Positions 22,090-41,964 of a stretch of DNA of 64,000 bases are shown in pieces. The DNA is from Escherichia coli. Lineage in GTDB: Bacteria; Pseudomonadota; Gammaproteobacteria; Enterobacterales; Enterobacteriaceae. Position 1 is the stretch's first letter. Every line of letters starts with the position of its first letter. Made by a program: the position numbers and the translations under genes. The notes beneath the pieces were generated by a model. The model had not been told where the DNA came from. It saw nothing but the letters and a program-made list of their open reading frames with translations, and searched no databases. The stretch is taken from NCBI RefSeq assembly GCF_044324875.1, contig NZ_CP172185.1; one strand, 5' to 3'.

Positions 22090-23754
22090 TTAAAACGTTT
22101 CCCAGTTCTCCCCGCTATCTGCCACGGCTATTTTACGCGGCGCAGCTGGCGTCACGGTTTTTACCACAGCCGATGTTTCACGCTGATGTTGCTGCTGTTG
22201 CTGAATCCGGAACACTGCCACAGCTTCGGTCAGGCGACTGGCCTGCTCTTCCAGCGCGGCGGCGGCAGCGGCAGATTCTTCCACCAGCGCAGCGTTCTGT
22301 TGAGTTACCCGGTCCATCTCAGCGACCGCTAAGCCAACCTGATCGATACCACGGCTCTGCTCATCAGAAGCAGAAGCTATTTCGCCCATAATGTCCGTCA
22401 CACGGGTCACGGCGCTGACAATCTCCGCCATTGTTTCCCCGGCGCTTTCGACCAGCGTAGAGCCAACATCCACTTTCCCCACCGAGTCTTCAATCAGGCT
22501 TTTAATTTCACGAGCCGCCTGGGCGCTACGCTGGGCCAGATTACGCACTTCTCCCGCAACCACCGCAAAACCGCGCCCTTGCTCACCCGCACGCGCAGCC
22601 TCAACCGCGGCGTTCAAAGCCAGAATATTGGTCTGGAAGGCAATGCCGTCAATTACGCTGATAATATCGGCGATTTTCTGCGAACTGGTGGAGATATCGC
22701 GCATGGTCTGCACCACGTTATCCACCACTTTGCCGCCGCGTTGCGCCGTTTCAGAAGCACTTAATGCCAGATGGCTGGCCTGGCGCGCATTCTCGGCGTT
22801 CTGTTTCACCGTTGCGGTCAGTTGCTCCATGCTGGCTGCCGTCTCTTCCAGCGAAGCGGCCTGTTGCTCGGTGCGCGAAGAGAGATCGTTATTGCCGGTG
22901 GCGATTTCGCTGGCACCGCTATAAATGGCATTGGCCCCGTTGCGCACATCACCGACGGTACGCATCAGCTCTCCCTGCATATGGCGCAAACTCTCTGCCA
23001 GTTGCCCCATCTCATTAGAGCCATCCACCTCAATCGGTTTGACCAGATCGCCGCCTGCAATATGACGAATGCTGTCAATCAGGCGATTCATTGGCGCTAC
23101 CAACGAGGCTTTAATACCGAACCAGACGGCGAAGATGACTGCCAGTACGACGATCATCACGCCCACCAGAATCCACATCGCCTGGCTGTAGGAGGCATTA
23201 TTATCGCTGACGGCGATATCATAGAGCCGATCGTTTTGCTCCATGTAAGCCACATACTGCTTCTCGAAACCGTCCTGATATCCCTGGGTTGGCTGATCAA
23301 AGAACTCGTTGATTTTGCCTGCACCTAACAGTTGGATCAGCTCCGCCAGCGCATTGTGATAAATATCGTAATTACGTTTGATCTCTGCCGCTGCGGCGGT
23401 GCTCTGACGCGGGTCACGCGGCAACGCTTCGTAATCCGCCCAGTTTTTTTCCGCCTGTTTCAGCGAAATACTGGCACTCTGCATTAGCTCAGCAACGGTT
23501 GAACCGCTACCAATATTATTCTGATCCATCATGTAGCGGATACCCGCGCGGTTGAGGGTGTTACGCGTCTGCAACAACGCAACCCAGCTGCCATTCAGCG
23601 TGGATTGCTGCTGGCGAATGGTTTGTAAAACAGTGAAATTTTCTTTGTCATTCTTTAAGGCATTAAAGAACAGACCGCCTGATGTCAGTTGTAAAAGGCC
23701 AAAAACGGCCAAAACCAGCAGTAAGCTGGTCACAATTTTGATACGTTTTAACAT
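22090..23754 (-). CDS. tsr: Methyl-accepting chemotaxis protein I (serine chemoreceptor)
   Basis: 554-aa ORF; HAMP and MCP signalling domains and the C-terminal NWETF pentapeptide. Confidence 0.9.
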
Positions 23755-23902
23755 GGTTTCTCTTTCCTGTGGACCGATGCAAGATTTTCGGCCTGGAAAG
23801 GAAAAACTTTATGAATATCCCGCGGAGATTACGCCGAGTAATTTTATTCACACTCTGAATTTAAAAAACCATTATTTACATAAATTATTCACAATATAAA
23901 TA

Positions 23903-23918
23903 TGTGATATGAATCACA
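23903..23918. promoter_or_regulatory. Consensus cAMP-CRP site TGTGATATGAATCACA in the tsr/btsT divergent intergenic region
   Basis: Perfect TGTGA-N6-TCACA palindrome; btsT (yjiY) is reported to be CRP-dependent. Confidence 0.55.
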
Positions 23919-23966
23919 TATTTATCGTCACTTAAACGACGCCTTTGCCGCTCAACCGCAAAACTG

Positions 23967-23995
23967 ACCGCTTACATCCCTAAAATAACCACTCA
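23967..23995 (+). promoter_or_regulatory. BtsR (YehT) operator: direct repeat ACCGCTTA-N13-ACCACTCA upstream of btsT
   Basis: Matches the reported ACC(G/A)CT(C/T)A direct repeat with 13-bp spacer. Confidence 0.55.
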
Positions 23996-24130
23996 GTTAT
24001 TTACCTTACTTTACGCGCGCGTAACTCTGGCAACATCACTGCAGGATAGCGGTCAATTTACCTCCTCAAACGCAACGCAAACCTAGAACGGCTTCGGCCA
24101 ACTATTAATCAATACATGCCAGGTTTTACT

Positions 24131-26281
24131 ATGGATACTAAAAAGATATTCAAGCACATACCCTGGGTGATTCTCGGAATCATCGGTGCATTCTGCCTCG
24201 CGGTAGTTGCATTACGTCGGGGGGAGCACGTCAGCGCCCTGTGGATCGTGGTCGCCTCTGTGTCGGTGTATCTGGTGGCGTATCGCTACTACAGTCTGTA
24301 CATCGCCCAGAAGGTAATGAAACTCGACCCCACGCGCGCGACGCCTGCGGTTATTAACAACGACGGTCTGAACTACGTTCCGACCAACCGTTACGTGTTG
24401 TTTGGTCACCACTTCGCCGCTATCGCCGGTGCTGGTCCGCTGGTGGGTCCGGTTCTCGCCGCGCAGATGGGCTACCTGCCTGGCACGCTGTGGCTGCTGG
24501 CGGGGGTCGTGCTGGCCGGTGCAGTACAGGACTTTATGGTGCTGTTTATCTCCTCTCGCCGTAACGGCGCATCTCTCGGTGAGATGATCAAAGAAGAGAT
24601 GGGACCAGTACCGGGGACTATCGCGCTGTTTGGCTGTTTCTTAATCATGATCATCATCCTCGCCGTCCTGGCGCTGATTGTGGTTAAAGCCCTGGCCGAA
24701 AGTCCGTGGGGTGTCTTCACCGTTTGCTCAACCGTACCAATTGCGCTGTTTATGGGTATCTACATGCGCTTTATCCGTCCGGGGCGTGTGGGTGAAGTCT
24801 CTGTCATTGGTATCGTGCTGCTGGTTGCCTCTATCTACTTCGGTGGCGTGATTGCTCACGATCCGTACTGGGGTCCGGCACTGACCTTTAAAGACACCAC
24901 CATTACCTTCGCGCTGATTGGCTATGCGTTTGTTTCCGCGCTGCTGCCGGTGTGGCTGATCCTCGCACCACGCGACTATCTGGCAACCTTCCTGAAAATC
25001 GGCGTTATCGTCGGCCTGGCGCTGGGTATCGTGGTGCTGAACCCGGAACTGAAAATGCCTGCGATGACCCAGTACATTGACGGTACTGGCCCGCTGTGGA
25101 AAGGCGCTCTGTTCCCGTTCCTGTTCATCACCATCGCCTGTGGTGCGGTATCCGGCTTCCACGCGCTGATCTCTTCCGGTACGACGCCGAAACTGCTGGC
25201 TAACGAAACCGACGCGCGTTTCATTGGCTACGGCGCAATGCTGATGGAGTCCTTCGTGGCGATTATGGCGCTGGTTGCTGCGTCCATCATCGAACCGGGT
25301 CTTTACTTCGCGATGAACACCCCGCCTGCTGGCCTTGGCATCACCATGCCTAACCTGCATGAAATGGGTGGCGAGAACGCGCCGATCATCATGGCGCAGC
25401 TGAAAGACGTTACCGCACACGCGGCAGCGACCGTCAGCTCCTGGGGCTTCGTGATTTCACCAGAGCAGATCCTGCAAACCGCGAAAGACATTGGTGAGCC
25501 TTCTGTCCTGAACCGTGCAGGTGGTGCGCCGACGCTGGCGGTAGGTATCGCTCACGTGTTCCACAAAGTGCTGCCGATGGCTGACATGGGCTTCTGGTAT
25601 CACTTCGGTATTCTGTTCGAAGCCCTGTTTATCCTGACCGCGCTGGATGCGGGTACCCGTTCTGGCCGCTTTATGCTGCAAGACCTGCTGGGTAACTTCA
25701 TCCCGTTCCTGAAAAAAACCGACTCTCTGGTTGCTGGTATCATCGGTACTGCGGGTTGTGTGGGTCTGTGGGGCTACCTGCTGTATCAGGGCGTGGTCGA
25801 TCCGCTGGGCGGCGTTAAGAGCCTGTGGCCGCTGTTCGGTATCTCCAACCAGATGCTGGCAGCCGTAGCGCTGGTACTGGGCACCGTTGTGCTGATTAAG
25901 ATGAAGCGCACCCAATACATCTGGGTAACTGTTGTTCCGGCTGTATGGCTGCTTATCTGCACCACCTGGGCGCTGGGCCTGAAACTGTTCAGCACCAACC
26001 CGCAGATGGAAGGCTTCTTCTACATGGCGAGCCAGTACAAAGAGAAGATTGCTAACGGTACTGACCTGACGGCGCAGCAGATTGCCAACATGAACCACAT
26101 CGTTGTGAATAACTACACCAACGCAGGTCTGAGTATTCTGTTCCTGATTGTGGTGTACAGCATCATCTTCTACGGTTTCAAAACCTGGCTTGCGGTGCGT
26201 AACAGCGACAAACGTACTGACAAAGAAACACCGTACGTTCCTATCCCGGAAGGCGGCGTGAAGATCTCTTCGCATCACTAA
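24131..26281 (+). CDS. btsT: Pyruvate:H+ symporter BtsT (CstA family)
   Basis: 716 aa from MDTKKIFKHIPW; many TM segments. Confidence 0.9.
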   Translation: MDTKKIFKHIPWVILGIIGAFCLAVVALRRGEHVSALWIVVASVSVYLVAYRYYSLYIAQKVMKLDPTRATPAVINNDGLNYVPTNRYVLFGHHFAAIAGAGPLVGPVLAAQMGYLPGTLWLLAGVVLAGAVQDFMVLFISSRRNGASLGEMIKEEMGPVPGTIALFGCFLIMIIILAVLALIVVKALAESPWGVFTVCSTVPIALFMGIYMRFIRPGRVGEVSVIGIVLLVASIYFGGVIAHDPYWGPALTFKDTTITFALIGYAFVSALLPVWLILAPRDYLATFLKIGVIVGLALGIVVLNPELKMPAMTQYIDGTGPLWKGALFPFLFITIACGAVSGFHALISSGTTPKLLANETDARFIGYGAMLMESFVAIMALVAASIIEPGLYFAMNTPPAGLGITMPNLHEMGGENAPIIMAQLKDVTAHAAATVSSWGFVISPEQILQTAKDIGEPSVLNRAGGAPTLAVGIAHVFHKVLPMADMGFWYHFGILFEALFILTALDAGTRSGRFMLQDLLGNFIPFLKKTDSLVAGIIGTAGCVGLWGYLLYQGVVDPLGGVKSLWPLFGISNQMLAAVALVLGTVVLIKMKRTQYIWVTVVPAVWLLICTTWALGLKLFSTNPQMEGFFYMASQYKEKIANGTDLTAQQIANMNHIVVNNYTNAGLSILFLIVVYSIIFYGFKTWLAVRNSDKRTDKETPYVPIPEGGVKISSHH

Positions 26282-40882: not shown

Positions 40883-41964
40883 TTAGTACTCGATCCATGG
40901 ATCGCGCTTGCTTTCAGGCAAGGGCTGATCTAATGCCTGCATTTGCTCTGCCGAAAGTCCGGTATATCGTTGTATCCATTCAGGATCCGCCCCATTCTGC
41001 AACAACAATCGGAGGAGGCTCCGTTCCCCTTCTACTTTCCCTTCTTTCCTCCCCCTCTCCCTTCCCAACAGCCATCCATCATTATGAATTCGCTCTGCAA
41101 TCGTCATTATTCGCTCCCTTTGTTGTGGCATTCGACTGGTTAGTTCGCTGATAAACTCTTTAAAACGCGCTTCATCGCCAGTCAGTAAAATGTAATTTAA
41201 CAGCGCAGTTATCTGGCTGTCATTAGTACACTCTGTAACCAGTAATACTACCAGTTGGTCGATAAGCCCCATCAGATCGCGCTGGCGAATATGCTTTTGG
41301 ATCAACTCCAACAGGGCGACTCTGCGGTGCTGCACAATCTCGTCGTCTGGCACGACAGTGATATCCACCAGCGGGAACGCGGCGGTATATACTCGTCATA
41401 CTTCAAGTTGCATGTGCTGCGACTGCGTTCATTCACCCCAGTCACTTACTTTTGTAAGCTCCTGGGGATTCACTCACTTGTCGCCTTCCTGCAACTTGAA
41501 TTATTTAGAGTATAAAGCTTCCGTGCGGTGGTCGGGTCAGCAAATTCGTCCAGCCAGCACAGGGACCAGGGGTAAGGACTACGGCTACCGTGATAAAACA
41601 GCATCGGGATGACCAGCGGTAGCGGCCGGCGTTTATCATGCTCGATATGGCGCTGCATCACCGCCATGGAATATCGCATCAGGCGAAAGGCCATATGGAT
41701 ATCCTCGCGGCTCTGATGTTCAATCACTACGTAAATATAACCATCACCTTCACGGGTCTTTACCGACCACAGAATATCAGAGTGTAGCGCCCGCAATTTT
41801 TCATCGACAAAGCTGGCGGATTCCAGTTTTAAGCTGTCGAGATCGCACAATTCACGTAAATCTATTGGTAAGTGGATCTCCATAAAATCCCGCGCGGTGT
41901 CAGGGTGGGTGAGAAAGGATTTAAATAATGCGTCATGCGGCGTACTGGTCGTGAAGTTTGTCAT
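40883..41964 (-). pseudogene. rpnD: Rpn-family (YhgA-like, PD-(D/E)XK) recombination-promoting nuclease gene disrupted by a frameshift
   Basis: N-terminal part (41470..41964) and C-terminal part (40883..41368 and its upstream in-frame extension) lie in different frames on the same strand; matches the yjiP/yjiQ split in K-12. Confidence 0.75.

Follow-up and report, generated by a model that had tools for sequence, protein, structure and literature searches.

What do the regulatory sites between tsr and btsT control in Escherichia coli, and which of these two divergent genes do they serve? We addressed this question in a 64-kb stretch of DNA from a strain other than K-12 (hereafter the window; positions are counted from its first base), by reading the sequence, by comparing it with other E. 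coli genomes and other Enterobacterales species, and by setting the sites against published binding data.

The tsr-btsT spacer and its flanking genes

The spacer between the two genes corresponds exactly to positions 23755-24130, with a length of 376 bp in the window versus 377 bp in K-12 MG1655. On the minus strand it is flanked by tsr, which encodes the serine chemoreceptor (22090-23754; an open reading frame annotated by RefSeq in the matching genomes and carrying the Pfam domains TarH, HAMP and MCPsignal), and on the plus strand by btsT (yjiY), which encodes a pyruvate/H+ symporter of 716 aa (24131-26281; RefSeq annotation; Pfam CstA, E = 5e-242). Besides the Pfam domains, both gene names are backed by the RefSeq annotation of E. 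coli genomes that are 99-100% identical. A 701-base query spanning the region found matches with 95-100% identity in 5,389 of the 5,426 complete E. coli genomes, with tsr and btsT annotated there. The layout is the same in K-12 MG1655 (btsT b4354, tsr b4355), and the spacer of the window shows three differences from it, one indel and two substitutions. Between the CRP box and the start codon, a single base differs (G/A at 24041), the other two differences falling within the variable part of the spacer described below. The genes btsS/btsR (yehUT, a distant locus in E. coli), crp and cyaA all lie outside this region of the genome, so that the window by itself does not allow a judgement on the intact carbon-starvation and pyruvate-sensing input that had been read from the sites.

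Some observations concern the genes themselves. The tsr gene has 554 codons in the window and in O157-type strains versus 551 in K-12 and strain 3985, a 9-bp in-gene length polymorphism. An in-frame ATG is located 15 bases 5' of the annotated btsT start (window 24116-24130), so that the mechanically called open reading frame has 721 aa versus the annotated 716 aa; the start used by RefSeq and K-12 is MDTKK at 24131. In E. coli strain ET245 (locus L006), an IS1A element is located just 5' of the tsr promoter, btsT is absent and yjiT comes next, so that the btsT region appears to have been deleted in association with the IS element.

The CRP box and the BtsR repeats

A cAMP-CRP site, TGTGATATGAATCACA, is present in the spacer at 23903-23918 (centre 23910.5), with a perfect core of inverted half-sites TGTGA-N6-TCACA. 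The preliminary description of the region had reported a perfect CRP palindrome at this place, and reading the sequence confirmed its coordinates. The word perfect holds for the half-sites and also for the 9-base arms ATATGTGAT and ATCACATAT (23900-23908 and 23913-23921, with ATGA between them), which extend the inverted repeat to 23900-23921, but it does not hold for the 16-mer as a whole, the central TATGAA of which is not self-complementary. The assignment to CRP agrees with a genomic-SELEX study (PMC3105977, supplementary file 4) that lists a peak in the yjiY/tsr spacer with the box TGTGATTCATATCACA, which is the reverse complement of window 23903-23918. The exact 16-mer was also sought in the main texts of the literature, where no match was obtained; it was found only in a supplement. 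Deletion of crp significantly alters the activity of a btsT-lux fusion (PMC7730263, Fig. 5), and both a cAMP-CRP requirement and catabolite repression of btsT transcription are stated in several papers.

Closer to btsT, two direct repeats are found on the plus strand, R1 (ACCGCTTA, 23967-23974) and R2 (ACCACTCA, 23988-23995), separated by 13 bases, and R1 starts 164 bp ahead of the ATG of btsT. Kraxenberger and colleagues are said to have described, in 2012, two direct repeats ACC[G/A]CT[C/T]A with a 13-bp spacer for BtsR (YehT). The repeats had been noted before at these positions as a match to the reported BtsR/YehT binding architecture, and the match extends to every base of the repeat region, as window 23943-24000 is identical to the 'yjiY YehT bs' oligonucleotide, CCTTTGCCGCTCAACCGCAAAACTGACCGCTTACATCCCTAAAATAACCACTCAGTTA (PMC4847170). 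The same oligonucleotide includes a further upstream repeat on the plus strand, R0 (GCCGCTCA, 23947-23954), with 1 mismatch to ACCRCTYA. R0 lies 12 bp upstream of R1, so that the whole follows the pattern of a LytTR operator, i.e., direct repeats ACC[G/A]CT[C/T]A spaced by about 12-13 bp. It has been published that btsT transcription requires BtsS/BtsR and that the BtsR motif is conserved across gamma-proteobacteria, and the binding of BtsR to the repeat DNA and of CRP to the box in vitro are both in the literature, as is the loss of btsT promoter activity in a crp mutant. The sites thus coincide with a published oligonucleotide and a published SELEX box, and the CRP dependence has been published as well. 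These agreements support the earlier interpretation of a btsT gene controlled by CRP and BtsR, and they also mean that the CRP box and the BtsR repeats of btsT are already known.

Conservation of the sites across Enterobacterales

A scan with BtsT using one genome per species yielded 80 loci with at least 90% amino-acid identity, from Escherichia to Rahnella and Erwinia. The conservation set, anchored on the CRP box, comprised 79 sequences, i.e., 78 other Enterobacterales species and the window. In this set, the CRP box had zero, one or two mismatches in 29, 46 and 4 sequences, respectively. The promoter-proximal half-site TCACA was kept in 77 of 79, and the single mismatch was usually the outermost T of the distal half-site. 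R1 was the most strictly kept repeat (no mismatch in 70 sequences, one in 9), while R2 had none in 56 and one in 23. R0 had none in 55, one in 23 and two in a single sequence, a conservation equal to that of the published R2, with a perfect ACCGCTYA in most other species. The columns of R0 are more than 90% conserved, and the spacers between the repeats vary in sequence. One locus, L070, on a contig labelled Chryseobacterium sp. 18061, has a btsT of enterobacterial type (92% identical), preceded by the complete CRP/R0/R1/R2 promoter; this record is probably mislabelled or contaminated.

The distances are conserved to a similar degree. Counted from the CRP centre, R0 starts at 36.5 in 70 of 79 sequences, R1 at 56.5 in 65, R2 at 76.5 or 77.5 in 67, and a TGnCAnnAT element further downstream at 116.5 or 117.5 in 66. 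R0 and R1 are separated by 12 bp in 74 of the 79 sequences, and R1 and R2 by 12 or 13 bp in 78. Overall, the offsets of the CRP box, the three repeats and TGnCAnnAT are constant within about 1 bp across the 78 other species. Based on this conservation, the operator probably consists of three repeats and not two, with R0 as a putative BtsR target. A possible degenerate fourth repeat, R-1 (GTCACTTA, 23927-23934, plus strand, +16.5 from the CRP centre), is weak, with 2 mismatches in the window. We do not claim it as a repeat, as its mismatches across species are mostly 2-4 and it is only marginally above chance.

Short motifs such as these can arise randomly, and nothing further speaks for the reading of the CRP and BtsR motifs as functionless chance matches. 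TGTGA-N6-TCACA occurs once on the two strands of the 64-kb window, where 0.06 occurrences are expected from shuffled sequences, and ACCRCTYA-N13-ACCRCTYA likewise has a single occurrence, also with up to 2 mismatches tolerated, against about 0.0005 expected for an exact match (analytic estimate). Both motifs stand upstream of the one known BtsR target gene, where they correspond to published binding sites and are conserved in 78 species. The conservation and the published binding data effectively refute the chance reading, to which we assign a negligible probability.

The sites belong to the btsT side of the spacer

The tsr gene has its own promoter, read on the minus strand as TAAAGTTT (23811-23804), 11 bases, and GCCGAAAA (23792-23785). 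This element (23785-23811) has 1 mismatch to TAAAGTTT-N11-GCCGATAA, as in class 3 flagellar (FliA) promoters depending on sigma-28. It is kept in 28 of the 28 species with tsr in reach, and a SELEX peak of the RpoF holoenzyme that lies within the spacer has been assigned to tsr (PMC5493296).

At least four types of sequence are found upstream of btsT among the 5,426 complete E. coli genomes. Haplotype A, represented by the window and K-12 (2,633 genomes; box TGTGATATGAATCACA), has a spacer of 84 bp and a directly divergent tsr. Haplotype B (2,261 genomes; box TGTGATCTCAATCACA) contains the 11-kb hpa (4-hydroxyphenylacetate) cluster, with the hpaC terminator abutting the CRP box. Haplotype C, mostly O157:H7 (363 genomes; box TGTGATCATCATCACA), contains a 543-bp orphan ORF, and haplotype D an oxidoreductase locus (box CGTGATCTCAATCACA). 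An island is present between tsr and btsT in about half of the 5,426 genomes, always inserted just upstream of the CRP box. On the tsr side, the sequence shared by every haplotype ends just past the -35 of the sigma-28 promoter (about 23812-23816), and on the btsT side it restarts 0-3 bases from TGTGA. The variable K-12-type spacer at 23816-23899, the point of island insertion or swap, holds no conserved element in the four-haplotype alignment. In type B, just 118 bp of DNA, including the sigma-28 promoter, are left upstream of tsr, and R0 is perfect on the btsT side (ACCGCTCA). The CRP centre is located exactly 56.5 bp from the first R1 base in all four haplotypes, and the 48-base stretch from the CRP box to R1 is just 44-63% identical among them.

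Two of the insertions can be described further. The hpa cluster, from hpaR to hpaC, extends over L003:5856-17033 in E. coli strain 3985 and is absent from the window and K-12. The orphan ORF of type C encodes 180 aa without a Pfam match and is embedded in AT-rich DNA (L002:1884-2426 in E. coli strain 120).

These distributions bear on the reading that the CRP site is shared with, or directed at, the divergent tsr promoter, in addition to or instead of btsT. The site does stand between both genes in the window, at 126 bp from the tsr -10, and the tsr-btsT adjacency is widespread, being found in 22 other species. On the other hand, the hpa cluster parts tsr from the CRP site by 11 kb in the 2,261 type B genomes. 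Besides, the CRP centre is 70 to 132 bp away from the tsr -10 where the genes are adjacent and 774 to 1,123 bp away in the presence of insertions, while the distances from the CRP site to the btsT elements are fixed. Together with the conserved sigma-28 promoter and the RpoF SELEX peak described above, this makes a role of the site at tsr very unlikely. As the box and the repeats are kept with fixed spacing in all haplotypes while the DNA toward tsr is replaced, the comparison of genomes assigns them to btsT alone, tsr having its own sigma-28 promoter. The term divergent control region, which had been applied to the interval, is therefore correct in that the interval is the tsr-btsT spacer, but not in the sense of shared control, as the sites accompany btsT, not tsr, across both haplotypes and species. 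Where islands have inserted naturally, they delimit the btsT control region, whose outer boundary falls exactly on the CRP box.

The btsT promoter and leader

The conserved TGnCAnnAT element reads TG (24028-24029), G, CAACAT (24031-24036) on the plus strand of the window and is a putative extended -10 of btsT. Taken as such, it would place the transcription start at about 24043 and give a leader of about 88 nt (putative 5' untranslated region, 24043-24130). Between R2 and this element, two blocks on the plus strand, ATTTACC (23999-24005) and ACTTTACGCGCGCG (24008-24021), have columns that are 70-99% conserved across species; they contain TTTAC twice, 10 bp apart. The blocks (23999-24021) probably contain a weak -35, TTTACG (24010-24015), and a contact of the RNA polymerase alpha subunit or a site for another factor are further possibilities. 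A generic scan for sigma-70 promoters and terminators gave nothing adjoining btsT, only AT-rich matches within the variable spacer; this is expected for an activator-dependent promoter and is not positive evidence. An experimental btsT start site was sought in supplements of transcriptome studies, which contained no usable entry, that of bioRxiv 2020.07.18.207399 listing RNA 3' ends only.

Two other promoter assignments were considered and rejected. The sequence TGGCAACATCACTGCA (24028-24043) resembles the sigma-54 consensus TGGCAC-N5-TTGCA, but the -12 'TGC' is not conserved across species, whereas TGnCAnnAT is. Furthermore, sigma-54 promoters require an AAA+ activator, and BtsR has been described as having receiver and LytTR domains only. 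The combination of a -35 TTTACC (24000-24005) with a -10 TAACTC (24022-24027) was discarded, as the columns of this -10 are poorly conserved.

Post-transcriptional control of the btsT mRNA by CsrA has been reported (PMC5431176, PMC10653868, PMC5936718). GGA motifs are present in the leader at 24044-24046 and, overlapping the start codon, at 24133-24135. An Rfam scan of 23600-24400 returned chance hits below threshold only and found no structured RNA. Term-seq data place an RNA 3' end 122 nt within the btsT coding sequence, at about window position 24253 (K-12 4591157; bioRxiv 2020.07.18.207399, supplement), which may be a site of premature termination or processing.

In 2,063 E. coli genomes (about 38%), the leader contains an imperfect palindrome of about 125 bp after the position equivalent to window 24098 (L001:2653-2795), with a predicted folding energy of -56 kcal/mol. 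The palindrome is also present in E. albertii and a Citrobacter, and a copy with 82% identity occurs on the minus strand of the window at 41390-41494. It resembles the consensus of the ERIC/IRU element. An ERIC-like insertion at this position could change the structure of the btsT leader or the CsrA-dependent control of translation.

Proposed model of btsT activation

Considering the above, the region is very probably the characterised E. coli btsT (yjiY) promoter, with a BtsR array and CRP co-activation, adjoining an independent sigma-28 promoter of tsr. It is established that the kinase BtsS senses external pyruvate and that the LytTR-type response regulator BtsR then binds the repeats, which are R1, R2 and probably R0, and activates btsT. 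Under the model that we propose, BtsR would do so at a sigma-70 promoter with a poor -35 and the extended -10 TG-G-CAACAT. With cAMP-CRP on TGTGATATGAATCACA acting as a required co-activator, btsT is switched on only in the presence of pyruvate and in the absence of preferred carbon sources. In this way, the sites place the high-affinity pyruvate transporter under the joint control of BtsS/BtsR pyruvate sensing and cAMP-CRP catabolite repression.

With the putative start at 24043, the site centres would be at -51.5 (R2), -72.5 (R1), -92.5 (R0) and -132.5 (CRP). The CRP site would thus be outside the canonical positions -41.5, -61.5, -72.5, -82.5 and -92.5, and a direct contact of CRP with RNA polymerase of the class I or class II type is doubtful at such a distance. 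The repeat centres are 20-21 bp apart, and the CRP centre is 40 bp from that of R0, with the weak R-1 position midway. Each step amounts to about two helical turns, so that all proteins would share one face of the DNA. As the CRP site is in the same register of about 20 bp as the repeats, its role is most likely architectural, in which CRP would bend the DNA and stabilise either the BtsR array or an upstream contact of the RNA polymerase alpha subunit.

A different reading of the distant position is that CRP is bound without stereospecific requirements, i.e., that it only counters the silencing of AT-rich DNA by H-NS or LeuO, or that the dependence of btsT on CRP is mainly indirect. This would be in line with a centre at about -132.5, too far upstream for a classical CRP contact, with the AT-rich nature of the K-12-type upstream DNA and with the report of LeuO as a repressor of btsT. 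However, an anti-silencer would need no fixed helical phasing, and the spacing between the CRP box and the repeats stays within 1 bp over the 79 sequences and in haplotypes with unrelated upstream DNA. In addition, one haplotype carries a GC-rich terminator directly against the box. We regard anti-silencing or indirect control as improbable, and the strict phasing argues for the architectural role of CRP. The most specific version of this model, in which R0, R1 and R2 (and possibly R-1) form a helically phased array, with CRP occupying the next slot and co-activating architecturally or cooperatively throughout the Enterobacterales, is put forward tentatively, as a possibility that we would not yet favour over its negation.

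What the present comparison adds to the known btsT promoter is modest: the ownership of the sites by btsT alone, the operator of probably three repeats, the rigid geometry of CRP box, repeats and promoter, and the putative, unusually distant upstream position of the CRP site. The third repeat and the rigid CRP phasing provide a testable model for the cooperation of CRP with an activator of the LytTR family.

Comparison with known systems

The closest system is the K-12 yjiY (btsT) promoter studied in the Jung laboratory (Kraxenberger et al. 2012, J Bacteriol 194:4272; Behr et al. 2016, 2017), which is the same locus and shows no essential difference, as both repeats and the 13-bp spacer are identical in the non-K-12 strain of the window. 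Compared with that literature, in which two repeats are described, the conserved R0 and the fixed CRP phasing are added here by comparison of genomes.

The arrangement also resembles the 'class III' CRP promoters, in which expression likewise requires both a specific activator, bound at its own sites, and a consensus CRP box upstream of these. Among the promoters with two activators, acsP2 and araBAD are examples of a CRP site far upstream. The btsT promoter differs from this class in that its CRP site, at about -132.5 from the putative start, would be past the canonical positions and in that the partner is a LytTR-type response regulator. We found no worked-out mechanism of CRP synergy for regulators of this type in the literature.

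The promoter of cstA, which encodes a paralogous pyruvate transporter, is like that of btsT in being CRP-dependent and in giving rise to a CsrA-controlled mRNA, and its CRP site is unusually far upstream, at about 80 nt (PMC7730263), as that of btsT would be. On the other hand, BtsR repeats are absent from cstA, which is repressed by Fis, whereas btsT additionally requires BtsR.

Direct repeats like those of btsT are found in other LytTR operators, such as AgrA P2/P3, the VirR boxes and the YpdB sites A and B at yhjX, the general form being repeats of 8-11 bp with a gap of 11-13 bp upstream of the -35 (PMC4847170). While these operators consist of a single pair, btsT would have three repeats, and possibly a degenerate fourth, in an array with a periodicity of 20-21 bp. 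In the 'yhjX YpdB bs' oligonucleotide (PMC4847170), the sequence GTCATTCATT is present upstream of the two GGCATTTCAT repeats, starting 20 bp before site A and agreeing with the repeat in 6 of 10 positions. In view of this similarity, the LytTR promoters of yhjX and btsT may share a degenerate third repeat upstream.
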